A model generated the notes under the pieces. The model searched no databases. It worked only from the letters and a program-made list of their open reading frames with translations, and was not told the origin of the DNA. Below, piece after piece: positions 2,020 to 32,021 of a stretch of 59,395 bases of DNA (the stretch's first letter is position 1; each line of letters starts with the position of its first letter). Source of the stretch: Bacillota bacterium (GTDB taxonomy: Bacteria; Bacillota; Dethiobacteria; DTU022); NCBI GenBank assembly GCA_012840855.1, contig DUVX01000033.1, positions 1 to 59,395 of the forward strand, given 5' to 3'. The position numbers and the translations under genes were made by a program.

Positions 2020-2096
2020 GGAGCTGTGGTGTAGAGGCCTAACATGCCTGCCTGTCACGCAGGAGATCGCGGGTTCGACTCCCGTCAGCTCCGCCA
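2020..2096 (+). tRNA. tRNA-Asp(GTC)
   Basis: Cloverleaf; anticodon arm CCTGC-CTGTCAC-GCAGG; TTCGA loop; CCA end. Confidence 0.97.
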
Positions 2097-19978: not shown

Positions 19979-20037
19979 GAACGAACCAGGTGACCCTCGC
20001 AGCGGTTGCATTGGGGAAAGGAGACAGCCCTTAAAAG

Positions 20038-22470
20038 ATGAGTCTATCTCAGAAACGCTGGGACGAGCCGGCTTCGGCATCTGACGGAGCGGTGACCGCC
20101 CTGGCGGAAGAGCTGAATATTATGCCGGCTCTGGCCCGGGTTCTATTCCAGCGGGGGATCAAAGAGAGCGCTGCCGCCCGCAGCTTTCTTGATCCCTCGC
20201 TGGAGCGGCTCCATTCCCCCTGGCTGATGAAGGGGATGGAGCGCGCGGTGGCGCGGATCTGCACCGCCCTGGAAAAAGGCGAGAAGATCGTTGTACATGG
20301 CGACTATGATGTCGACGGGATTACCGCGGCGGCGCTCCTGATGGAGGTGCTACGGCAACTCGGGGCGGCGGTGGTGGACTTTTACCTGCCCAGCCGTTTC
20401 CGGGAAGGCTATGGGCTGCACCGCGAAGCGCTGGAGCAGATCGCCGCGGCGGGAGCCGACCTGCTGATCACCGTCGATTGCGGCGCCAACGCTTCCTCTG
20501 AAATCGCTTGTGCCCGCAGCCTCGGCTTGGATCTGATCATTACCGATCATCACAAGACTTTTGAGCCGCTTGAGGGAGCCGCAGCAGTTCTTAATCCCCT
20601 GCAGGAGGGCTGCCGTTACCCCTTCAAGGATCTTTCCGGTGCAGGGATCGCCTTTAAACTGGCCACAGCGCTGAAAGAAAAAAAGGACGCGGCTTTTCCG
20701 GAAGATCTTCTCGATCTGGCCGCCCTGGGGACGGCGGCCGATATGGTGCCGCTACTCGGAGAAAACCGTATCTTGACCGCCCAGGGGCTGGCGCGGCTGA
20801 GGCGTGCACCGCGGCCTGGCCTGGAGGCTCTGGCAAAAATTGTGGGGATCGAGCCGGCGCAGATCGACAGCTATGCGCTCTCTTTTATACTGGCTCCGCC
20901 GCTCAATGCTGCAGGCCGCCTGGGTGAGGCCGATCCGGCGCTCCGCCTGCTTCTGGAACAGGACAGGGAGAGCGCCGCAGCTCTTGCCCAGAATTTACAT
21001 AACATAAATCGCGAGCGCCGTGACAGGGAAGCGCGGATTCTCCGCGAGGCTGAAACTGTTCTAAAGAGCGATCGCTGCGCCGCGGGGGAGCATATCATCA
21101 CTCTGGCCGGCGACGGCTGGCCTCACGGGGTCATCGGCATCGTTGCTTCACGCCTGGCGGAGCGTTTTTACCGGCCCGTGGTGCTCATCGCTCTTGACGG
21201 CGATGAGGGGCGGGGCTCGGCGCGCAGCATCCCCGGTTTCGATATCACCGCTGCCTTGCACAGCTGTGCGCCGCTCCTGGAGCGTTTCGGGGGGCACACC
21301 CAGGCCGCCGGCCTGACGATCAGGGCGGAGCGCGTCGCTGATCTGCGCAGGGAACTCAATCGCTATGCTGCGCCGCAACTGCGGCGCGAGAAGCTTTCGC
21401 CCCTTCTTCAGTTTGATGCCGCCCTGGATCCGCCGGAGATCGGGATGGAGTTGGCCCGCCAGGTGGCGCTGCTGGAGCCCTTCGGGGTGGCCAATCCGCC
21501 GCCCCTTTTTTGTGGCCGGGGTTGGGAGCTGCGCTCATGGCGCCTCGTGGGGGCCGACCGAAAACACCTCAAATTAAATCTGGCCAGTGATGAGCACCGG
21601 GCGGCGCCGATCTTTTTCTCGGCGGCTTCACTGGAGCCCTCTCTCAGGCGGGGCCGCCGCTTCGATCTGGCTTTTACCCTGAGAGAGGGGCGCTTCAAGG
21701 ACCGGCCCATTCTCGATATGGTCTTGAAAGATCTGCGACGGGCCGATCGCCATACGGGCGGCCGAGTTACCGTCATCGACAGGCGCGAACGCCGCCGCCT
21801 CGCTTTGCTGAACAGAATTCTACGCGCTGACGCTGCGCCGGCGGTCATCTTCACCGCCACAAAAGGGCGGCGGGCGGCGCTGAAAGAGAAGCTGATGGCG
21901 GAGCAGCCGCTTGCTTTTCTCGGCAGCGGGAGAGATAATTATGAGGAGGGCTCGCCCGCACCGGCGTGCGGTTACCCGGTGCTGGTCCTATATGATCTGC
22001 CCCTGACGAAGAAGATCGTGCAGCAATATTTCGATCGCTGCGCCGCCGAAGGCGGCCTCCGGATCTATCTTCTTTACAGCGAAGCCGATCGAAAACGCAA
22101 TGATCTGCTGCTCAATCTGGCACTGCCTTCGGATGACGCCCTGGGTGAAATCTATCGCGCCTGGGCCGAGGCCGCTACGGCTACAGGGAAGGCCGGACTG
22201 CCGGCCAGTCTGCGGGAAAGGTTCGCTGCGCCGGCGGGAACAAAATTTTGGGAGCGCTGCCTGAAGATCTATGCTGAAGCGGGGCTTTGTCGCGGCGGAG
22301 CGCCTTTACCACCGGAGGATCTTTCCATGCTGGGGCGATCGCTCCAGCGCTCGCCCGCTTTCCAAGCAGTGCGCGAGCTGCGCGAGGGTTGCTTTCGCTA
22401 CCAGGAGATGCTTCTAAAAAGCTCTCCGGGAGAGCTGGCTGCCGCCTGGGATCAGCTGCTTGAGGTTTAG
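20038..22470 (+). CDS. recJ: ssDNA-specific exonuclease RecJ
   Basis: HGDYDVDG, VDCG, TDHH, LNAAGRL, GSARS, FGGH..AAG. Confidence 0.95.
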   Translation: MSLSQKRWDEPASASDGAVTALAEELNIMPALARVLFQRGIKESAAARSFLDPSLERLHSPWLMKGMERAVARICTALEKGEKIVVHGDYDVDGITAAALLMEVLRQLGAAVVDFYLPSRFREGYGLHREALEQIAAAGADLLITVDCGANASSEIACARSLGLDLIITDHHKTFEPLEGAAAVLNPLQEGCRYPFKDLSGAGIAFKLATALKEKKDAAFPEDLLDLAALGTAADMVPLLGENRILTAQGLARLRRAPRPGLEALAKIVGIEPAQIDSYALSFILAPPLNAAGRLGEADPALRLLLEQDRESAAALAQNLHNINRERRDREARILREAETVLKSDRCAAGEHIITLAGDGWPHGVIGIVASRLAERFYRPVVLIALDGDEGRGSARSIPGFDITAALHSCAPLLERFGGHTQAAGLTIRAERVADLRRELNRYAAPQLRREKLSPLLQFDAALDPPEIGMELARQVALLEPFGVANPPPLFCGRGWELRSWRLVGADRKHLKLNLASDEHRAAPIFFSAASLEPSLRRGRRFDLAFTLREGRFKDRPILDMVLKDLRRADRHTGGRVTVIDRRERRRLALLNRILRADAAPAVIFTATKGRRAALKEKLMAEQPLAFLGSGRDNYEEGSPAPACGYPVLVLYDLPLTKKIVQQYFDRCAAEGGLRIYLLYSEADRKRNDLLLNLALPSDDALGEIYRAWAEAATATGKAGLPASLRERFAAPAGTKFWERCLKIYAEAGLCRGGAPLPPEDLSMLGRSLQRSPAFQAVRELREGCFRYQEMLLKSSPGELAAAWDQLLEV

Positions 22471-22510
22471 GGCCGGCAAAAATAATTAAAGATAAGATCG
22501 GTGAAAGAAG

Positions 22511-24688
22511 ATGCCGGTAAAAGAAAAAAAACTGGACAATCTAAAAAAACTGCTGGCCCGTCATTACCCCAGCGTTGATGATTGGGCTCGGGTGGAGAAA
22601 GCATACGCGTTGGCGCGGCAGGCGCACAGCGGGCAGCGGCGTGAATCGGGAGAGTCATTTATCAGCCACCCCCTAGGGGTGGCTACGATCCTGGCCGAAC
22701 TGGGCCTTGATTTGACCACGGTTATAGCGGGGCTGCTCCACGATGTCGTCGAGGATACGGCGGTAACCCTGGAGGAGATCAGGGAGAGCTTCGGGGAGGA
22801 GATCGCCGCCCTGGTGGACGGGGTCACAAAGCTGAGTCGCCTTGATTTTGCCTCTCGCGAGGAGCAGCAGGCCGAGACCCTGCGGAAGATGTTCATCGCC
22901 ATGGCCGAGGATATCCGGGTTATCCTGATCAAGTTGGCCGACCGGACGCATAATCTGCGCACCCTGCGCTACCTCGATCCGCGGAAGCAGCAGGAGATTG
23001 CACGGGAGACGATGGAGATCTATGCGCCGCTGGCCCACCGCCTCGGTATCTATAAGATCAAATGGGAGCTTGAGGACAGCGCCTTCCGTTATATGCAGCC
23101 CGGCGCCTATTATCGGCTCGTCGATCAGCTGGCCAAAAAGAGGCGGGAGCGGGAGCAATTTATCAGCCGCCTGATCAATATTATTATGAAACGCCTCGAA
23201 GCGGTGGGTATGACCGCCGAGATCCAGGGGCGGCCGAAACACCTCTACAGCATCTATCACAAGATGAAAGAGCAGGAGAAGGATTTAAGCGAGATCTACG
23301 ATCTCACCGCCATCCGCGTCATCGTGGATTCGGTAAAGGATTGCTACGGCGTCCTCGGCACGATCCATGCCATCTGGAAGCCCATCCCGGGCCGGTTCAA
23401 GGATTATATCGCCATGCCCAAACCGAATATGTACCAGTCGCTGCATACGACGGTGGTGGCCGCCGAGAACGAGCTCGTCGAGATCCAGATCCGCACCTGG
23501 GAGATGCACCGCACCGCCGAATACGGTATCGCTGCGCACTGGCGCTACAAGGAGAAGATCACCGATGAGCGCGAATTCGATCAGAAGCTGGCCTGGCTGC
23601 GCCAGCTGCTTGAATGGCAGCAGGATTACCGGGATGCGCGGGAATTCATTGAAAACCTGAAGCTCGATCTTTTTACCGATGAGGTCTTTGTCTTTACGCC
23701 GCGCGGCGATGTCATCGATCTCCCCGCCGGCTCCATACCTATTGATTTCGCCTACAAGATCCACACCGATATTGGCCACAGCTGCACCGGTTCGCGGATC
23801 AATGGACGGCTCGTCCCCCTCGATTATGTCCTGAAAACGGGGGATATGGTGGAGATTATCACCGGCAAGCACAGTTCACCCAGCCGCGATTGGCTGAATA
23901 TGGTGAAAAGTGCCCAGGCGAAAAATAAGATCCGCAGCTGGTTCAAGCGGGAGCGTCGGGAGGAAAATATTGAAAAGGGCCGCGAGATGATCGAACGCGA
24001 GAACCGCCGCCTCGACTACGACCTGAGGGATCTGCTCAAAAGCGACCTGGTGGAAGAGGTGGCGCGGAAGTTCAATCTTCAGTCGGCAGACGATCTATAC
24101 GGCGCTGTGGGCTACGGCGGCATCACCGTCCGGCAGGTTATCGGGCGGCTGCGCGAGGAATATCGCCGCAAGTACGGCCTGAAGGAAGAGACGCTGCCGC
24201 AGACCAGGCCGGAGCAGCGCCCGCCTCCCTCTGCCCCCGGAGTGATCGTCGAGGGGATCGACAATATCCTGGTACGCTTCGCCCGCTGCTGCAATCCTGT
24301 GCCCGATGATGCCATCGCCGGGCTGGTGACGCGCGGCCGGGGGGTCTCCATCCATCGCGACGACTGCCCTAATTTAAAGGCTTACCGCTCCGAGAGCGGC
24401 AGGCTGCTCAAGGCCGCCTGGGAGAAGGAAGCGGCGCGGGCTTACCCGGTAACCATCGAGGTAGCGGCCAATGACCGGACCAACCTGCTGGCTGATATTA
24501 CGGCGGCCATCAGCGAGTGCAAGATCCAGATCGCCGCGGTGAACGGGCGCGCTGAGAGGGACAATACGGCGATCATCCATCTGACCCTGAGCGTAAAGGA
24601 TCGGGCGCAGCTGGAGCAGGTGATGAGCCGGGTCAAGAAAGTGAAAGATATCTACAGTGTGCGCCGTCATCTTTACTGGAAGAGCTGA
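22511..24688 (+). CDS. relA: Bifunctional (p)ppGpp synthetase/hydrolase
   Basis: [30 protein letters not shown]; TGS and ACT domains. Confidence 0.97.
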
Positions 24689-24705
24689 TCGGGGGAGGCG
24701 GAAAA

Positions 24706-25155
24706 ATGCGTGCAGTGGTACAGCGTGTGGAGAGGGCCTCGGTGGCGGTAGGCGCGGAAATCATCGGAAAGATCGGCCCCGGCCTTGTTGTCTACCTGGG
24801 CGTGGGGCGGGACGATAGCGCCGCCGATTGCAGCTACCTGGCCAAAAAGATTGCAGGGCTGCGTATATTCGAGGATGAGAGCGGGCGGATGAACCTCTCT
24901 GTCAGGGAAAACGGGGGGAGCATCCTCTGCATCTCCCAGTTCACCCTCTACGGTGATTGCCGTAGAGGGCGCCGGCCCAGCTTCACCGCCGCCGCTTTGC
25001 CGGAGAAAGCGGCGGAACTTTACGAGGAATTCTGCACCCGCTTGAGTGAGGAGGGGCTCGCGATCGCCCGGGGACGCTTCGGGGCGATGATGCAGATAGA
25101 GCAGGTTAACGACGGGCCGGTGACGATCCTGCTGGATAGCGGCAAGAATTTCTAG
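24706..25155 (+). CDS. dtd: D-aminoacyl-tRNA deacylase
   Basis: [19 protein letters not shown]. Confidence 0.95.
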
Positions 25156-25243
25156 CGATCTGCACTTTGGGATCGACAAAGCAATCTATTGGCAGCGGGA
25201 CAGCTGCCAAAAATGAGAGATCATTTGGGAAGGGTGAGGGTAA

Positions 25244-28200
25244 TTGCAGTATCGGGCTCCCCGGGGTACCCGGGACCTTTTGCCGGGGGAGATTGAAAGA
25301 TGGCATTTTCTCGAGGAAACATTCAGGGGGCTCTGCGCACTCTACGGCTACGGTGAGGTGCGCACGCCTTTTTTCGAGCAGACCGATCTTTTTGCTCGCA
25401 GTGTGGGTGAAGAGAGCGATATCGTTTCCAAGGAGATGTATACGTTTAAGGATCGCAGCGGCCGCAGCCTGACCCTGCGGCCTGAGGGTACGGCGGCGGT
25501 GGCTCGCGCTTACCTGGAAAATAATTTAAAAGACCGGCCGCAGCCGATCAAACTCTACTATGTGGGGCCCATGTTCCGCTATGATCGTCCGCAGGCAGGG
25601 CGTTACCGCCAGTTTCACCAGGTGGGGCTGGAGCTTTTCGGTGCCGCCCATCCCGTTGCCGACGCCGAGATTATCGCTCTATCCATCAATTTTTTGAAGG
25701 CGCTGCATATTGACGATTTCAACCTGGAGCTGAACAGCGTGGGCTGTCCCCGTTGCCGTCCCGCTTACGGGGAAGAGCTGCGCGGCTTCCTGCGCTCGCT
25801 CAAAGAGGAGCTCTGCTCGGACTGCCGGCGCCGCTTCGAGGAGAACCCCTTGCGGGCGCTGGACTGCAAGGAGCCCCGCTGCCGCGAACTGGTCCGGCAG
25901 GCGCCGATGATGCCCCAGCGCCTTTGCGCGGAATGCCGGATCCATTTCGCGGAGCTGCAGCGGATTCTCGATGGCCTGAAGATTCCCTTTCTCCTCAACC
26001 CCCGTCTTGTCCGCGGCCTCGACTATTACAGCCGCACCGCTTTTGAATTTGTTCCCCGTGAGGACAGGGCCCTCGGTTCTTTAGGCGGCGGCGGGCGCTA
26101 CGATTACCTCGTTGAGTACTGCGGCGGACCGCCCGTTCCCGGGGTGGGGGTAGCTCTGGGTATAGAGCGTCTCCTCACCGCCGCCGGGGCGGCGGCGATA
26201 TCGCCCTTCTCTACGGCGGAGCCGCCGCTCTATATCGCTTCGGCTGGAGAGGGCCTCTCCCCGGAGACGCTGGCCCTTGCGGAAGGACTCCGCCGCCGTG
26301 GCATCCCCGTGGAGACTGAGCTGATGGAGCGCAGCCTGAAGGGGCAGATGAAATATGCCGGCCGGAAAGGTTTCCCGGCGGTGCTGCTCATCGGCTCGCG
26401 CGAGCTGGAGACAGGGACCGTGACCCTGCGCCGCATGGACAGCGGCGAGCAGGAGACGGTGCCCCGCGCCGGGCTGGCGGAGAGGCTGCAGCGGGAGGGG
26501 CTTCTCCCCCGGCGGCAGGAGGCGACAGCCGGCGGAACGGCAGAGGGAGCGGAACCGCCGGGTTGCGGGGAGCTGCGCGCCGGCGATGCCGGCAAAGAGC
26601 TGGCCCTGCGGGGCTGGGTGCAGCGCCGTCGCGATCATGGCGGGCTTCTCTTTGTCGATCTGCGCGACCGCACCGGGCTGGTTCAACTGGTCTTCAACAG
26701 TGAGGGCGACCGGGAGCTTTTTGCCCTGGCCGAAAGCCTGCGCAGCGAGTACGTCATCGCTGTGCGGGGTAAAGTGCTCCGCCGCGATCCCGACCAGCGC
26801 AACCCCGCCCTGAAGACGGGCGAGATCGAGATTCAGGTTGCGCATCTGGAGATCCTCAATCGCTCGAAGACGCCGCCCTTTTATATCGAAGACGGGCTCC
26901 ATGTGGACGAAAACCTACGCCTGCGCTATCGCTATCTCGATCTGCGCCGTCCCGAGAACTACCGCCGTCTGGCGCTACGCCACCGTGCGGTAAAGCTGAT
27001 CCGTGATTATCTCGACGGGTGCGGCTTCCTGGAAATCGAGACCCCGGCGCTGACGCGCAGCACCCCTGAGGGGGCGCGTGATTACCTGGTACCCAGCCGG
27101 AGTAGCCCCGGTTCCTTTTACGCCCTGCCGCAATCGCCGCAGCTTTTCAAGCAACTGCTCATGGTGGGCGGCGTGGAGCGCTATTTTCAGATCGCCCGTT
27201 GCTTTAGGGATGAAGATCTGCGCGCGGACCGGCAGCCCGAGTTCACCCAGATCGATATCGAGGCCTCCTTCATGGAGAGGGAGCGCCTGTTTGCGATCAT
27301 GGAGGGGATGATGGCTCTCCTTTACAGCGGGCTCCTCGGCTATGAGCTGCCTCGCCCCTTCCTTCGGTTGACTTACCGCGAGGCGATGGAGCGTTACGGC
27401 ACCGACAAACCCGATCTGCGCTTCGGGATGGAGCTGATAGATTGCAGCGAACCGGCCCGGGAAAGCGAATTCAAGGTTTTCCGGAGCGCTCTCGAGGCCG
27501 GCGGAGCGGTCAAAGCGCTGCGGGCCCCGGGGAAGGGCGGCTACAGCCGCCGGGAGCTCGATGAGCTTGTCGCCCTCGCCGTTGGCTGGGGAGCGGGGGG
27601 GCTAGCCTGGTTAATCCGCGAGGAGCAGGGCTGGCGCTCGCCCATCGCTAAATTTTTCAGCCCCGCCCTGCTGGAGAAGATCGGGGAGCTTGCCGGAGCC
27701 GTTCCCGGCGATCTGCTGCTTTTTGCCGCCGGTGATAGATCGCTCTGCAATGAAGTCCTGGGCCGGATGCGGCTGCACCTCGCTCCGGAGAGCCTGCCGG
27801 CGGAGCCGCATTTTCTCTGGGTCGTCGACTTTCCCCTCTTCGAGTACGATCCGCTGGAGAAAAGGCTGACTCCGGCGCACCATCCCTTCACGGCGCCGCG
27901 GGAGGAAGATCTGCCGCTTCTCGAGAGTGAGCCCCTGGCGGTGCGCTCGCAGGCCTACGACCTGGTGCTTAATGGGGTGGAGCTGGGCTCGGGGAGCAAC
28001 CGGATCCACCGCCGCGAGATCCAGTGGCGCATCTTCCGGGAGCTGGGGATCTCGGAGGATGAAGCGATGGAGAAATTTTCTTTTCTCCTGGAAGCACTGG
28101 AGTACGGGGCGCCTCCCCACGGGGGGATCGCCCTGGGCCTGGACCGCCTGGTGGCTCTCTTCACCGGAGACGAGTCGATCCGGCAGGTGATCGCCTTTCC

Positions 28201-28321
28201 GAAGACCGCCGCTGGAAGCTGCCTGCTCACGGGCGCACCGGCTGAGGTGGCGCCGCAGCAGCTGCAGGAGCTGGGCCTCAGCATTAAATCCGCCTTAAAA
28301 GACGGCGGCCCAGACCGCTGA
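25244..28321 (+). CDS. hisS-aspS: Fused histidyl-tRNA synthetase / aspartyl-tRNA synthetase (1025 aa)
   Basis: HisRS motifs RPEGTA, FRYDRPQAGRYRQFHQ, RGLDYY, GGGRYD (to ~26500); AspRS motifs RRRDHGG, PEGARDY, FRDEDLRADRQPEF, PPHGG...DRL (from ~26561); no stop between them. Confidence 0.9.
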   Translation: MQYRAPRGTRDLLPGEIERWHFLEETFRGLCALYGYGEVRTPFFEQTDLFARSVGEESDIVSKEMYTFKDRSGRSLTLRPEGTAAVARAYLENNLKDRPQPIKLYYVGPMFRYDRPQAGRYRQFHQVGLELFGAAHPVADAEIIALSINFLKALHIDDFNLELNSVGCPRCRPAYGEELRGFLRSLKEELCSDCRRRFEENPLRALDCKEPRCRELVRQAPMMPQRLCAECRIHFAELQRILDGLKIPFLLNPRLVRGLDYYSRTAFEFVPREDRALGSLGGGGRYDYLVEYCGGPPVPGVGVALGIERLLTAAGAAAISPFSTAEPPLYIASAGEGLSPETLALAEGLRRRGIPVETELMERSLKGQMKYAGRKGFPAVLLIGSRELETGTVTLRRMDSGEQETVPRAGLAERLQREGLLPRRQEATAGGTAEGAEPPGCGELRAGDAGKELALRGWVQRRRDHGGLLFVDLRDRTGLVQLVFNSEGDRELFALAESLRSEYVIAVRGKVLRRDPDQRNPALKTGEIEIQVAHLEILNRSKTPPFYIEDGLHVDENLRLRYRYLDLRRPENYRRLALRHRAVKLIRDYLDGCGFLEIETPALTRSTPEGARDYLVPSRSSPGSFYALPQSPQLFKQLLMVGGVERYFQIARCFRDEDLRADRQPEFTQIDIEASFMERERLFAIMEGMMALLYSGLLGYELPRPFLRLTYREAMERYGTDKPDLRFGMELIDCSEPARESEFKVFRSALEAGGAVKALRAPGKGGYSRRELDELVALAVGWGAGGLAWLIREEQGWRSPIAKFFSPALLEKIGELAGAVPGDLLLFAAGDRSLCNEVLGRMRLHLAPESLPAEPHFLWVVDFPLFEYDPLEKRLTPAHHPFTAPREEDLPLLESEPLAVRSQAYDLVLNGVELGSGSNRIHRREIQWRIFRELGISEDEAMEKFSFLLEALEYGAPPHGGIALGLDRLVALFTGDESIRQVIAFPKTAAGSCLLTGAPAEVAPQQLQELGLSIKSALKDGGPDR

Positions 28322-28592
28322 AGGCGTCAATGAGGTCATGCATCACCCCGGCGCCGCGGGAGATGATCAGCCCGGTGAGCAGGTAGTCGATATAGGTGCA
28401 GCGGATGAAACCGCCGCCGGCGATGGCCAGCAGGCCGCGGTCGGTAAGGTAGCAGACCAGGACGCCCAGAACGGCAGCGAGCAGCTTTGCCGGCAGCCGT
28501 CTGAGGAGGGGAAAAGATCCCCGCAGGGCCTCGGTGATAAATTCCACCACCACGGCCAGGTAAAAGAGAACGATGAGGGCTTCAGTCAACAT
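28284..28592 (-). CDS. Small membrane protein, holin-like
   Basis: 102 aa with ~3 hydrophobic segments, LTGLIISRGA..HDL motif; SD GAGGAGG; converges on and overlaps the aspS end. Confidence 0.6.
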   Translation of the reverse strand: MLTEALIVLFYLAVVVEFITEALRGSFPLLRRLPAKLLAAVLGVLVCYLTDRGLLAIAGGGFIRCTYIDYLLTGLIISRGAGVMHDLIDAFSGLGRRLLRRI

Positions 28593-28710
28593 CTTTACGG
28601 TCCTCCTCTCTATCTCCGGTGATCTATGATATGCTTGCTCACCATCAGGCGCCTTTAGGTTGGCCCTGCCTCCGGGCGCTTTGTTTTCCAGGATGTTACT
28701 TTTAGTTTGC

Positions 28711-28739
28711 TTGATTCTTGTTCTGAAATATGCTATGAT
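28711..28739 (+). promoter_or_regulatory. sigmaA promoter of 6S RNA
   Basis: TTGATT-N17-TATGAT with extended TG. Confidence 0.75.
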
Positions 28740-28749
28740 CCGGGTGCAC

Positions 28750-28932
28750 AAGGACCCTGCTGTGTTCGTGTCTACCGGTAAAGTTTTGAGCTAACACATG
28801 ATTCTCGGGAGCCTGGTCTTTAGCTGTGGCGTAGCAGCCTCCCTTGAGAGGACCTACAAAGCAGTTAAGAGGGCACCCACTTTTTGGGGGAACAGTTCAA
28901 AACCCAACGGTCCACGGCATAGCGGGGTTTTT
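28750..28932 (+). ncRNA. ssrS: 6S RNA
   Basis: Closing stem GACCCTGCTGTGTTCGTG (28753-28770) pairs with CACGGCATAGCGGGGTT (28913-28929); ~180 nt; GGGAGC/GGCACCCAC core; usual position downstream of aspS. Confidence 0.85.
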
Positions 28933-28956
28933 TTGGTTGGAAAGGAGGAGTTGCCC

Positions 28957-30282
28957 TTGCCCCTCTTGATAGACGAACTCTCCACCCGGATCAGACAGGG
29001 CCTTCAGGAAGGTGTTCATCCGGGAGATCTGCTCGAACTGCTCGATCAGCTCAGCGACGAAGAGAAAACAGAGATATTGAAGCTGCTCTCTGACGACGAA
29101 GTGACGGCGCTGATCCAGGAGATGGAGCGTTTTGAGCAGGTATCTCTTTTTCGCCTTCTTGATTACGGCCGGGCTCCCGCTGTTCTTAAAGCGATGGCTT
29201 CCGACGATGCCGTCGATTTGCTAGGCGAGCTGTCGCCGGAGGAGATCGCCGCTTTGCTGCCGCTGGTGGATGAGGAGGGCGCCAAGTTCAGCGGGCTGCT
29301 GAAGTATCCCGAGGAGAGCGCCGGGGGGATCATGACTACTGAGTATATCTCCCTGCCGGCCGATCTGCCCGTGGAAGAAGCGATTGCACGGCTGCGCGAG
29401 ATCGCGCCCCAGGCGGAGACGATCTACTATGTATTTGTCGTTGATCTGGAAAACCGGCTCATCGGCGTGCTCTCGCTACGTGACCTCATCGCCGCTCCCG
29501 ATGGCACCCCGCTTAAAGAGATCATGCGGCACAACGTGATCAGCGTCAATGCCGCGCTCGATCAGGAAGAAGTCGCCCGGGTGGTGGTGAAATACGATCT
29601 GCTTGCTCTGCCGGTGGTCGACGACAGCAACCGCCTTCTGGGAATTATCACTTTTGACGACATCATGGATGTTCTGGAGCAAGAGGCCACGGAGGATATC
29701 TACCGCCTCGCCGGGGCCGGCGAGGTCACCGGCGTGGAGCTCATGGAGGCTTCCGCCTACCAGGTCGCCTGGCATCGCACTCCCTGGCTACTGCTGAGCA
29801 TGCTCGGGGGGATCGCGGCCGGTTACATTATGAGCACCTTCGAAAGCACCCTGGAAGCGATCCTGGTGCTCGCTTTCTTTATCCCGGTGATTATGGATAT
29901 GGGGGGCAATGTGAGCACACAGTCCTCGACGATCTTTGTCCGGGGGATCGCCACCGGGGAGATCAAGGGAAACGGTATCTGGCGGTATCTTTTTCGTGAG
30001 ATACGGGTGGGGCTTTTGATGGGGGTTCTCTTCGGTCTGCTGGTGGCCGCAGCAGCGTTGCTCTGGCGGGGAAACCCCGTTTTGGGGCTCGTTGTCGGCA
30101 CCTCCATGATCGCCACCATCTCGCTCGCCACGATTATCGGCACGCTGGTCCCGCTATTTTTTCACAAGCTTAAAATAGATCCGGCGATAACCTCGGGGCC
30201 CCTGGTGACGACGATCAAGGATATCACCGGCCTGCTCATCTATTTCGGAATGGCTACTCTTTTTCTTGATTATCTTTGTTGA
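28957..30282 (+). CDS. mgtE: Magnesium transporter MgtE
   Basis: N-domain, CBS pair (SAGGIMT), MGGNVSTQS, DPAITSGPLVTTIKD; SD AAAGGAGG then TTG. Confidence 0.93.
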   Translation: MPLLIDELSTRIRQGLQEGVHPGDLLELLDQLSDEEKTEILKLLSDDEVTALIQEMERFEQVSLFRLLDYGRAPAVLKAMASDDAVDLLGELSPEEIAALLPLVDEEGAKFSGLLKYPEESAGGIMTTEYISLPADLPVEEAIARLREIAPQAETIYYVFVVDLENRLIGVLSLRDLIAAPDGTPLKEIMRHNVISVNAALDQEEVARVVVKYDLLALPVVDDSNRLLGIITFDDIMDVLEQEATEDIYRLAGAGEVTGVELMEASAYQVAWHRTPWLLLSMLGGIAAGYIMSTFESTLEAILVLAFFIPVIMDMGGNVSTQSSTIFVRGIATGEIKGNGIWRYLFREIRVGLLMGVLFGLLVAAAALLWRGNPVLGLVVGTSMIATISLATIIGTLVPLFFHKLKIDPAITSGPLVTTIKDITGLLIYFGMATLFLDYLC

Positions 30283-30544
30283 GATGTCAGCCGGCGACAG
30301 GTTGCCATATTAAATGCAGCACCCGCTCTTTTTGCTGTTGCGAAAATTTTTATCCTGCTTGAAAGAAGAGATCGGTTGCGGATAATGGCGAGATAGCACG
30401 AGGGCCGGCGGCGGAATCGATCTAAAAACAACAAAATAGGTCAGCATACCCGAATATACATTACATAAAATTGTATATACTGTTAATTACTAGTGAGAAG
30501 AGGATGGTTTATTCCTCTTTTTTTTTATTTGGTGCCTTTTACAG

Positions 30545-30606
30545 GCAGGAGATCGGTAAAGTGGCGCGAATTGAATATCAGGTGGTGGATTGTGGGGTAA
30601 AGTGGG
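30545..30606 (+). promoter_or_regulatory. sigmaH-type promoter and MraZ-binding repeats upstream of the dcw cluster
   Basis: GCAGGA-N17-GAAT (30545-30571); GTGG(T/G) at 30582, 30592 and 30602 with 10-bp period. Confidence 0.7.
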
Positions 30607-30616
30607 TGAGGCGGGC

Positions 30617-31048
30617 GTGTTTACCGGTGAATATCTACATACGCTCGATCAAAAGAGTCGGGTGATCATTCCCGCCAGGTTCCGGGAGGAGCTGGGGGAT
30701 ACCTTTATGATCTCCCGCGGCCTCGACCGGTGTATCTTTGTCTACCACCTTAATGAATGGAGCAAGATCGAACAGAAGGTCAAAGAGCTGCCCCTGACCA
30801 GGAGCGATGCACGGGCTTTTACTCGCTACCTCTTTTCCGGCGCCGCCGAAGTAGAGACGGATCGGCAGGGGCGGGTCTTAATCCCCCAGGGCTTGCGCGA
30901 GTACGCCCGTATTGAAAAAGAGGTTATGATCATCGGCGTCTCCAACCGCGTGGAAGTATGGAGCGCCGAGGCCTGGAAAGAATATACCAGCGCGGAAAAT
31001 CTTGATTTCGAGGCCGCTGCCGAAAAACTGGCGGATCTTGTTTTCTGA
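30617..31048 (+). CDS. mraZ: Division/cell wall cluster repressor MraZ
   Basis: FTGEY.HTLD.K.R.IIP, DRQGRVLIP, GV.NRVEVW. Confidence 0.95.
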   Translation: MFTGEYLHTLDQKSRVIIPARFREELGDTFMISRGLDRCIFVYHLNEWSKIEQKVKELPLTRSDARAFTRYLFSGAAEVETDRQGRVLIPQGLREYARIEKEVMIIGVSNRVEVWSAEAWKEYTSAENLDFEAAAEKLADLVF

Positions 31049-31061
31049 TCGGAGGACGGCG

Positions 31062-32021
31062 ATGATCGAAAAACATATTCCGGTAATGGTTGAAGAGGTA
31101 ATTTTTTACCTCAACTGCCGTGACAGCGGTATCTATGTGGATGCTACCGTGGGGGACGGCGGGCACGCCGCCGCCATCTGCAGAACGCTGGGGCCTGACG
31201 GGTTCCTCATCGGTCTGGACTGGGACGGTGCGGCTCTAGAGCGGGCCGCTGAAAGACTGGCGAAATTTAAGGGGAAATTTATCCTGCGCCAGCGCAGTTA
31301 TGCCGGCCTCAGTGAGGTCCTGGAAGAGGAGGGGATCTCCCAGGTGGATGGAATCTTGCTGGATCTCGGCGTCTCCACGCTACAGCTGAGCGATCCCTCG
31401 CGCGGTTTTTCATACCAGCAGGATGAACCGCTCGATATGCGCATGGATCATCGCCTGGAAAAGAGCGCTGCCGATCTGGTCAACGGCCTGCCGCAGGCGG
31501 AGCTATCTCGACTGATCTACCGCTATGGGGAGGAGAGGTGGGCCCGGCGGATTGCAGCAGGGATCGTGTCGACTCGCAAAAAAAGCGGCCCCATCGAAAG
31601 CGGAGCGGCGCTGGCTGAGGTGATCAAAAGGGCGATCCCGGCGGCGGCACGCCGTAAGGGCGGCCACCCCGCGCGGCGCACATTTCAGGCGCTACGCATC
31701 GCCGTCAACGGCGAGCTGGATAATATTGAAGCTGTTCTGCCACAGGCGGTGACAACGCTGCGGCCCGGGGGGAGGATCTGCGTCATCGCTTATCATTCCC
31801 TGGAGGATCGCATTGTAAAGCGTTTCTTCCGGAAGCGCTCCCGCCGCTGCAGCTGTCCGCCCATGGTTCCCTGCACCTGCGGTGGGGATGGGGAGCTGAT
31901 CCGGATAACCCGGAAGGCGGTGCGGCCCTCCGCCGAAGAGGTGAGAGACAATTTCCGCGCCCGCAGTGCGCTGCTACGTGCTGCGGAGAGGAGCGTTCTA
32001 TCGAGCGAGGAAGGTGCATAA
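31062..32021 (+). CDS. rsmH: 16S rRNA m4C1402 methyltransferase
   Basis: HIPVM, DATVGDGGH, DLGVS, PLDMRM, FQALRIAVN, HSLEDR. Confidence 0.96.
   Translation: MIEKHIPVMVEEVIFYLNCRDSGIYVDATVGDGGHAAAICRTLGPDGFLIGLDWDGAALERAAERLAKFKGKFILRQRSYAGLSEVLEEEGISQVDGILLDLGVSTLQLSDPSRGFSYQQDEPLDMRMDHRLEKSAADLVNGLPQAELSRLIYRYGEERWARRIAAGIVSTRKKSGPIESGAALAEVIKRAIPAAARRKGGHPARRTFQALRIAVNGELDNIEAVLPQAVTTLRPGGRICVIAYHSLEDRIVKRFFRKRSRRCSCPPMVPCTCGGDGELIRITRKAVRPSAEEVRDNFRARSALLRAAERSVLSSEEGA

Follow-up and report, generated by a model that had tools for sequence, protein, structure and literature searches.

A conserved, unrecognised and probably obligate fusion of histidyl- and aspartyl-tRNA synthetases in a family of uncultured Bacillota

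Introduction

Is a bacterial reading frame that runs without interruption from a histidyl-tRNA synthetase (HisRS) into an aspartyl-tRNA synthetase (AspRS) a genuine gene and, if it is, how might it have arisen and what would its product do for the cell? The question is raised by the hisS::aspS open reading frame (ORF) on contig DUVX01000033.1 of the Bacillota assembly GCA_012840855.1, within a stretch of 59,395 nucleotides (nt) that was analysed as a whole and that we call the window. It is, to our knowledge, very rare for two different and complete aminoacyl-tRNA synthetases to be fused, with the animal Glu-Pro enzyme as the standard example. HisRS and AspRS are both homodimers, and hisS and aspS serve as separate single-copy markers. 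An earlier note on this DNA, made from the letters of the sequence, proposed that the frame is an evolved fusion and not just the outcome of a lost stop. After comparing the locus with related genomes, protein collections and independently assembled contigs, we hold with considerable confidence that it is a genuine fused gene, long maintained, which encodes one polypeptide with a complete HisRS followed by a complete bacterial-type AspRS. The conserved fusion is real and has gone unrecognised in annotation, and it is probably obligate.

One reading frame with two complete synthetases

The description of a single ORF of 1025 amino acids (aa), with complete HisRS and AspRS domains joined by a 20-aa linker, agrees with both the profile matches and the matches in the Protein Data Bank (PDB); the coordinates of all features are collected in Table 1. 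The HisRS half scores 499.4 bits against the hisS profile TIGR00442 (cut-off 286.75), residues 5-407 matching positions 2-405 of the 406 in the model, and its residues 4-414 align with positions 3-417 of the 420-residue chain of the solved HisRS 1qe0 (E=3e-111). Pfam places the HGTP anticodon-binding domain PF03129 at residues 331-417 (E=1.3e-16), and this C-terminal domain is what we take to separate HisRS from HisZ. The AspRS half scores 796.4 bits against NF001750 (cut-off 443; residues 441-1015 match model positions 9-587 of 590) and 719.5 bits against TIGR00459 (cut-off 373.85). It holds an OB-fold (PF01336, residues 455-538), PF00152 and the GAD insert (PF02938, residues 746-839), and query positions 2-574 of this half align with positions 8-577 of the 580 in PDB chain 1efw (E=9e-186). 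Because only about 6-8 N-terminal residues of the AspRS model are left unmatched, the AspRS module is essentially complete. The chain would have a mass of about 113 kDa, as estimated from its 1025 residues, and a curated NCBIfam model for a HisRS-AspRS protein was not among the best 25 of the 41 matched families.

An in-frame TAA immediately precedes the TTG start of the fused ORF. Downstream, across positions 26459-26618, the frame contains neither a stop nor an ATG, GTG or TTG, and no alternative AspRS start was found in the other two frames around the junction. The earlier observation that AspRS lacks an in-frame start of its own was therefore accurate, and a ribosome that begins at the TTG would be expected to translate both halves as one chain.

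The halves are also well kept at the residues that matter for catalysis. Among 86 full-length fused proteins, the HisRS segments R79-P80-E81-T83 and G282-G283-G284-R285-Y286 are invariant (86/86), as are the AspRS segments Q630-S631-P632-Q633 and F654-R655-D656-E657-D658 and the residues G961, G965, D967 and R968. We take these segments to be the class II and family motifs of the two enzymes. Judged from the alignment, both halves are under purifying selection that keeps catalytic and tRNA-binding residues, and both enzyme activities would be expected of the product.

Distribution of the fusion among relatives

The earlier note had suggested searching related genomes for the same architecture. 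With 340 aa centred on the junction as the query, 59 of the 73 species genomes of the window's family (f1), distributed over 16 genera, match through the junction without a break, at 56-81% identity to the query. Seven genomes of the family are unfused (G015, G017, G019, G067, G068, G022 and G071), including one in which HisRS terminates at a stop (G022) and one that has a stand-alone HisRS together with an AspRS of a different type (G071). The other seven (G003, G045, G069, G070, G074, G013 and G075) are uninformative owing to contig ends or the lack of any match. Genus g35 of the same family encodes a stand-alone HisRS of 431 aa, and a class IIb frame of about 440 aa takes the place of the bacterial AspRS (the g35 frames are G070:C58:24774-26057, G071:C203:997-2283 and G071:C141:7279-8511). 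The class IIb frame stays under the cut-off of the asnS model, with 252-256 bits, and is possibly an archaeal-type AspRS that stands beside a true asparaginyl-tRNA synthetase (AsnRS).

Beyond the family the picture is different. In the other four families of the order, 42 genomes were searched, without a fusion among the 39 that match: stops interrupt the match in eight, and in 31 it is limited to the AspRS part. Two ORFs outside f1, of 1064 aa in G111 and 792 aa in G110, were considered as fusions and rejected, since the ORF listing resolves them as separate hisS and aspS. Among 80 loci from other species of the GTDB, three are fused (all of them in f1), 55 are split, and in 22 the HisRS end was not found locally. 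The view that hisS and aspS are adjacent but separate genes thus holds for those 55 loci and for 13 of the 31 relatives' loci whose junctions we translated, and it fails for the other 18 of these 31, which are fused.

Protein collections contain 86 full-length fused clusters of 1022-1051 aa, with 59-100% identity to the window protein, and an additional four fragments that span the junction. Those with a name are labelled solely 'aspartate--tRNA ligase [Bacillota bacterium]' or 'aspartyl-tRNA synthetase', with the effect that the fused genomes seem to lack a HisRS. A library of representatives at 50% identity held one fused representative (P0005) among its best 150 and is unsuitable for counting fusions. 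More distant fused ORFs beyond f1 (P0089-P0092 and P0096-P0098) are leads only. For example, the sole close fused relative of P0091 is P0090 (71% identity), and the nearest AspRS relatives of P0091 are stand-alone proteins of 573-587 aa with 71-75% identity. A 52-member cluster of the ESM Atlas that carries both Pfam families, with a representative of 1016 aa, is likewise only a lead. The linkers of P0096 and P0097 contain two to three tandem copies of the 9-residue unit RTEVQATSM. It is for family f1 alone that an old, clade-wide fusion is established.

Origin of the fused gene

The unfused relatives offer a view of what the locus might have looked like before the merger. In split loci, the hisS stop is followed by a spacer of about 50-140 nt with a strong Shine-Dalgarno (SD) sequence (AGGAGG or GGAGG), after which aspS begins with M-x-x-(K/R)-T-H-x-C-G. 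The hisS stop of the unfused genome G017 aligns with residue 420, where the linker of the window begins (EQEG and then the stop, against QREG and then LLPRR). The spacing between the conserved blocks that flank the junction is 60-111 nt in the fused loci and a multiple of three in 18 of 18, whereas among the 13 split loci, six are interrupted by stops in the same frame and seven have their genes in different frames.

Signals for separate initiation of AspRS have largely disappeared from the fused loci. An SD core with an in-frame start at most 90 nt upstream of the conserved Cys-Gly is present in 3 of 26 fused loci versus 8 of 15 split loci, by a crude scan that misses 7 of the 15 real aspS starts in the latter; with the same 90-nt criterion, there is no candidate in the window. 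Traces of the old signals can still be seen in a few genomes. The linker of G073 (locus L120) holds an in-frame relic of the old start, GGAGAGGTGGAA-ATG-AAG-AGC-CAT (M-K-S-H-Y-C-G), and those of G005 and G020 (L004/L005) carry CTN-TAC (L-Y) directly before R-T, which matches the CTG-TAC spacer ahead of the TTG start in the unfused genus g16.

From these comparisons, the most likely history is one of stop loss and in-frame readthrough, followed by decay of the aspS initiation signals. The starting point would have been an ordinary neighbouring pair of hisS and aspS. Loss of the hisS stop codon would have let ribosomes continue in frame through the short spacer and the opening codons of aspS, which would thereby have turned into a flexible linker; the aspS ribosome-binding site and start codon would have decayed afterwards. 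Thereafter, AspRS could have been produced only within the fusion. The distinction that had been drawn between an evolved fusion and a simple lost stop stands, given that 59 of the 73 family genomes, in 16 genera, retain the fusion with a linker that is variable and yet always in frame.

How often this happened is a question for the gene trees, both of which come from quick searches and are not species trees. The AspRS tree (40 rows) places the fused genes in two clades, namely clade A, which comprises g1, g15, g2 and g17 and includes the window, and clade B, which comprises the remaining genera. The unfused genera g12 and g16 are weakly supported (83) as neighbours of clade A, and G017 branches at the base. 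Forcing all fused rows together costs 3.8 log-likelihood units and is not rejected by the approximately unbiased (AU) test (p=0.082). In the HisRS tree (42 rows), g16 and G015 lie outside all fused genes, and the long-branched G017 is unresolved among the fused genes; with the exception of G017, this tree is consistent with one origin. The simplest reading of these trees would be one ancient fusion event, in which case the unfused genera either branch near the base or owe their state to a single later fission, and two parallel fusions may be the alternative history.

The linker and the possibility of free AspRS

In the 86 aligned fused proteins, the linker (counted between the equivalents of R408 and C441) measures 31-53 aa, with a median of 40, and is enriched in A, E, G and P. 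It is far less conserved than the modules on its two sides: the mean majority-residue fraction is 0.22 in the linker versus 0.78 in the HisRS module and 0.80 in the AspRS module. An AlphaFold2 monomer model built from the 86-sequence alignment gives residues 420-437 a predicted local distance difference test (pLDDT) score below 50, and the linker is probably flexible.

Despite this variability, each of the two fused subclades keeps a short motif. The window's subclade retains (E/D)-P-P-G-C-G-E-L-R and is without A-E-V-x-L-P, whereas the larger subclade retains A-E-V-x-L-P about 12 residues before K-(T/S)-H-Y-C-G (loci L009, L010, L011, L012, L121, L123-L125 and others, at 39-57 nt upstream of K-T-H-Y-C-G). 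Because both motifs vary synonymously in their codons, the constraint acts on the peptide. We considered A-E-V as the relic of a GGAGGTG Shine-Dalgarno sequence and rejected this idea, as its codons are mostly GAA GTN and vary synonymously. The leucine that follows is encoded by CTG, TTG, TTA or CTC and is replaced by phenylalanine in one genome. A-E-V-x-L-P may be a docking or processing element.

These features bear on the alternative that survives best, which is that free AspRS is also, or even mainly, made, either from a non-canonical start inside the linker or by proteolysis of the linker. We regard this as improbable. The linker is modelled with low confidence and is probably exposed, A-E-V-x-L-P could in principle be a processing site in the larger subclade, a methionine occurs in the linker region of 20 of the 86 fused proteins, and the three fused loci noted above keep an SD-like core with an in-frame start. 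However, the window itself offers neither an in-frame start codon across the junction nor an SD-plus-start candidate, and the start candidates of other genomes lie at varying positions, as far as can be told from an insensitive scan that found 8 of 15 real starts. Moreover, selection for free AspRS would not require a stop-free, in-frame linker in 59 genomes. We therefore continue to prefer a product in which both enzymes remain on one chain.

The fusion as the source of both enzymes

With the whole fusion as the query, no second HisRS or AspRS was found in the window's genome, a metagenome-assembled genome (MAG) of 177 contigs that is 92% complete; the search returned only a 487-aa frame that resembles LysRS, with 31% identity. 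Genes for tRNA-His(GTG) and for two tRNA-Asp(GTC) are among the 35 tRNAs of this genome. Because both halves are intact and no other HisRS or AspRS was found, the fusion is most likely the sole cellular source of His-tRNAHis and Asp-tRNAAsp, and thus the cell's only HisRS and AspRS. A tRNA-Asp(GTC) gene lies at positions 2020-2096 (+) of the window, on the same contig as the fused gene. Given that both parent enzymes are homodimers, the simplest expectation by analogy would be an (HisRS-AspRS)2 particle.

It is also conceivable that one half is catalytically dead, for example that the HisRS half has become a HisZ-like regulatory or tRNA-binding domain while the real enzyme is encoded in an unassembled part of the genome. 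The HisRS region does match the HisZ model TIGR00443, and the incomplete assembly leaves room for such an enzyme. However, the HisZ score of 178.7 bits is under the cut-off of 271.65, compared with a hisS score well above its own cut-off (499 versus 287), the anticodon-binding domain of HisRS is present, and the core segments of HisRS are invariant in 86 of 86 proteins. Among the matches listed, there is no second HisRS in the window's genome or in any other genome with a full-length fusion, and second HisRS-like frames occur only in unfused genomes. We consider a dead half very improbable, and prefer a fusion in which both synthetases are active.

The junction in independent assemblies

The remaining concern is whether the junction exists in nature, and the earlier note had proposed looking across it for an indel or a stop. 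A 901-nt stretch that includes the junction is identical in 20 of the 24 runs listed, which belong to 13 metagenome studies (biogas, digester and bioreactor); four of the runs with this stretch are RNA libraries. The contigs of four runs (X9, X17, X18 and X19) were aligned to positions 25000-28500. Two contigs from RNA libraries, of 5414 nt (X18) and 5184 nt (X19), cover this interval in one piece with 0 gaps and with 32 and 33 substitutions, respectively. A third RNA-library contig (X17) covers 26337-28500, and a DNA contig (X9) covers 25925-27255 with zero differences. No inserted or deleted letters are listed in the contigs of the four runs over the aligned interval, so that all of them cross the junction without an indel. 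Third codon positions account for 32 of the 38 variable sites, 31 of the sites are synonymous, and the interval 26153-26604 has no variable site.

An artefact of assembly, binning or sequencing, or else a recent inactivating loss of the stop limited to this MAG, is effectively refuted and can be given next to no credence: the source MAG is fragmented, and the distant 'fused' database ORFs P0099 and P0110 resemble frameshifted translations, but the same junction recurs without indels in contigs of other studies, the fusion is kept across 59 genomes and 16 genera, and the 86 full-length protein clusters come from NCBI, ENA, JGI and Logan.

Several points nevertheless weigh against our interpretation of the locus as a long-maintained gene for an intact, indispensable fusion protein. 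The 59 fused genomes are kin, and they represent one or two fusion events rather than 59 independent observations. The contigs from RNA libraries may include DNA, and transcript ends are invisible in contigs. Two joints are listed within the locus (26302 to 28258 in X17 and 27046 to 27877 in X9), each with a shorter side of only 21 letters; joints with such short sides often stem from other organisms or from repeats. Since the genome is 92% complete, a second hisS, aspS or asnS may be among its unassembled parts. The AlphaFold2 monomer model is mediocre (mean pLDDT 67.9, predicted template modelling score (pTM) 0.44) and too weak for contacts between the halves. Finally, that the 1025-aa chain accumulates uncleaved is something we infer from nucleic-acid evidence.

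Charging of tRNA-Asn

The earlier note read the RRRDHGG segment as a sign of a non-discriminating AspRS, which would charge tRNA-Asn as well as tRNA-Asp. This proposal gained indirect support from the genome context, whereas the residue itself proved less telling. No AsnRS above the cut-off was found in the window's genome, where the best score (96 bits) belongs to the 487-aa LysRS-like frame, and no frame resembling an archaeal-type AspRS was found there. The same genome encodes GatB (570.6 bits, above the cut-off), the one GatCAB subunit that the search covered. At E<=1e-60, AsnRS had no match in the 14 genomes of g1 and g15, the window's genome counted, or in g2, g17, g12, g14 and g16. Nearly all genomes of clade B carry it, for instance in g4 (14/15), g5 (7/8) and g18 (7/7), and also in g6, g20 and others. 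The presence of AsnRS divides the family cleanly along the two fused subclades. From this pattern, the indirect pathway to Asn-tRNA seems to be obligatory in only one of them.

The histidine in question, His465, aligns with a histidine in 4wj3, 5w25 and 4rmf, whose chains are named Asp/Asn ligase, and with a leucine in 1efw and 6hhv, the Asp-specific enzyme of Thermus. Published mutagenesis has reportedly linked a histidine after RRRD to the acceptance of tRNA-Asn. One observation pulls in the other direction. All 86 fused proteins carry His465, also those of the subclade that possesses AsnRS, and because of this invariance the genome context is the stronger argument. The tRNA-Asn gene is not among the 35 tRNAs of the incomplete assembly, nor are the tRNAs for Tyr and Ile; as the assembly is incomplete, the absence counts neither way.

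Taken together, the absence of AsnRS, the presence of GatB and His465 make a non-discriminating AspRS likely (the non-DISCRIMINATING reading). In the subclade that lacks AsnRS and carries GatB, the fusion would then also supply Asp-tRNAAsn, which GatCAB would convert to Asn-tRNAAsn. On the strength of gene content, the fusion is probably the source of Asp-tRNAAsn for GatCAB in the window's subclade.

Neighbourhood and regulation

The fused gene follows two genes on the same strand whose labels are candidates, with spacers of 17 nt between the relA-like and dtd-like genes and 88 nt between the dtd-like gene and the fused ORF. The hisS-aspS pair of Bacillus is reportedly regulated by a T-box, whereas no leader of that type reaches the Rfam gathering score in the window, where a scan of positions 20000-32000 returned 6S RNA only. 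Because the spacers are short and no T-box was found, co-transcription with the relA-like and dtd-like genes, and with it the lack of a tRNA-sensing leader, is probable.

Immediately after the fused gene, at 28751-28932 (+), comes the 6S RNA (RF00013, 96.8 bits, full model). A mechanically called ORF at 28798..30282 overlaps it, and the true start of this ORF is therefore probably later; we take its product, as a candidate label, to resemble MgtE-type magnesium transporters by sequence.

Table 1. Coordinates of the fused gene, its parts and the genes upstream of it
Feature	Position in window	Strand	Remarks
RelA/SpoT-like gene	22511..24688	+	upstream gene; candidate label from reading the translation
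dtd-like gene (D-aminoacyl-tRNA deacylase)	24706..25155	+	upstream gene, 149 aa; candidate label
Shine-Dalgarno-like purine-rich run AAGGGTGAGGG	25230..25240	+	3 nt before the TTG start; putative function
Fused hisS::aspS ORF	25244..28321	+	1025 aa, TTG start, stop codon included; frame kept in relatives
HisRS module, residues 1-419	25244..26500	+	class II catalytic core and C-terminal HGTP anticodon-binding domain; TIGR00442, PF13393, PF03129
Linker LLPRRQEATAGGTAEGAEPP, residues 420-439	26501..26560	+	putative former intergenic spacer and first aspS codons
AspRS module, residues 440-1025	26561..28318	+	N-terminal OB-fold anticodon-binding domain, class II core, GAD insertion
His465 codon in RRRD-H-GG	26636..26638	+	candidate marker of tRNA-Asn acceptance, from structure alignment

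Relation to known fused synthetases

The nearest analogue in kind is the Glu-Pro enzyme of animals (EPRS), and the nearest relative by descent is the separate, adjacent hisS-aspS pair. As portrayed in the passages on fused synthetases in PMC4394549 and PMC11580382, EPRS carries two complete synthetases on one chain, the product of a gene fusion with a linker that is found throughout a large clade. The likeness is that two complete synthetases of different specificity were joined by a linker through fusion and have been kept across a large clade. However, EPRS unites a class I with a class II enzyme through structured WHEP repeats and is a eukaryotic protein within a multi-synthetase complex, whereas the fusion described here unites two class II homodimeric enzymes through a short, variable, low-complexity linker and derives from neighbouring cistrons of a bacterial operon. 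The separate hisS-aspS pair of Bacillota and other bacteria has the same genes in the same order and on the same strand, but it retains its own hisS stop and the SD and start of aspS, all three of which are absent from the window.

For the AspRS half, a useful comparison is the Asn-transamidosome with a non-discriminating AspRS, a Helicobacter pylori system (PMC3367201). The transamidosome AspRS of 4wj3/4wj4 is likewise of the bacterial type, with a GAD insert and the histidine of RRRD-H-GG. The AspRS half reaches 589 bits against 4wj3 overall, and the same structure tops the PDB matches to the anticodon-binding domain of this half. Enzymes of the 4wj3/4wj4 type stand alone, whereas the AspRS of the window is tethered to HisRS at the N-terminus of its anticodon-binding domain.

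Other fused forms of synthetases include the (alpha-beta)2 GlyRS and the double-length TyrRS (in the pertinent passages of PMC11580382) and LysRS-MprF, or LysX (in those of PMC5388404). None of the GlyRS, double TyrRS, AspRS-GatC and LysX fusions unites two different complete synthetases. Membership of the window protein in two of these groups was considered and rejected, as it scores 625 bits on the AspRS-GatC model NF009460 (cut-off 1379) and 139 bits on the LysX model NF002821 (cut-off 742). In its passages on the subject, the 2024 AARS Online review (PMC11580382) names only EPRS, double TyrRS, fused GlyRS, fused or split AlaRS, PheRS and PylRS, and a HisRS-AspRS fusion is not mentioned in the passages on fused synthetases in PMC4394549, PMC5388404 and PMC11580382. 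A full-text search, with subscription journals and supplementary files outside its scope, found no description of such a fusion.

Implications

A more ambitious possibility is that the fusion goes beyond a means of co-expression and forms the core of a bacterial multi-synthetase particle, either as a closed (HisRS-AspRS)2 assembly or as open chains that bring in GatCAB as well. Both halves are obligate dimers, and non-discriminating AspRS assembles with GatCAB and tRNA-Asn into a transamidosome, which lends the idea some appeal, but at present we consider it doubtful. If true, the charging of tRNA-His, tRNA-Asp and tRNA-Asn and the formation of Asn would take place in one assembly, and three of the four tRNAs with GUN anticodons, the queuosine family, would be served together. 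The conserved peptides of the linker (EPPGCG in the window's subclade, AEVxLP in the other) would in that case be explained by constraints on docking or spacing.

Even without such a particle, the fusion is a rare parallel, among bacteria, to the Glu-Pro fusion enzyme of animals, hosted by uncultured Bacillota of biogas reactors that belong to at least 16 genera. A practical consequence is that the two markers hisS and aspS are one gene in the fused genomes. Furthermore, with its unfused relatives and the genome that retains a relic of the old start, the fusion lets the merger of two essential dimeric enzymes be followed step by step in nature. For the question of how multi-synthetase assemblies arose, this family offers a simple model in bacteria.

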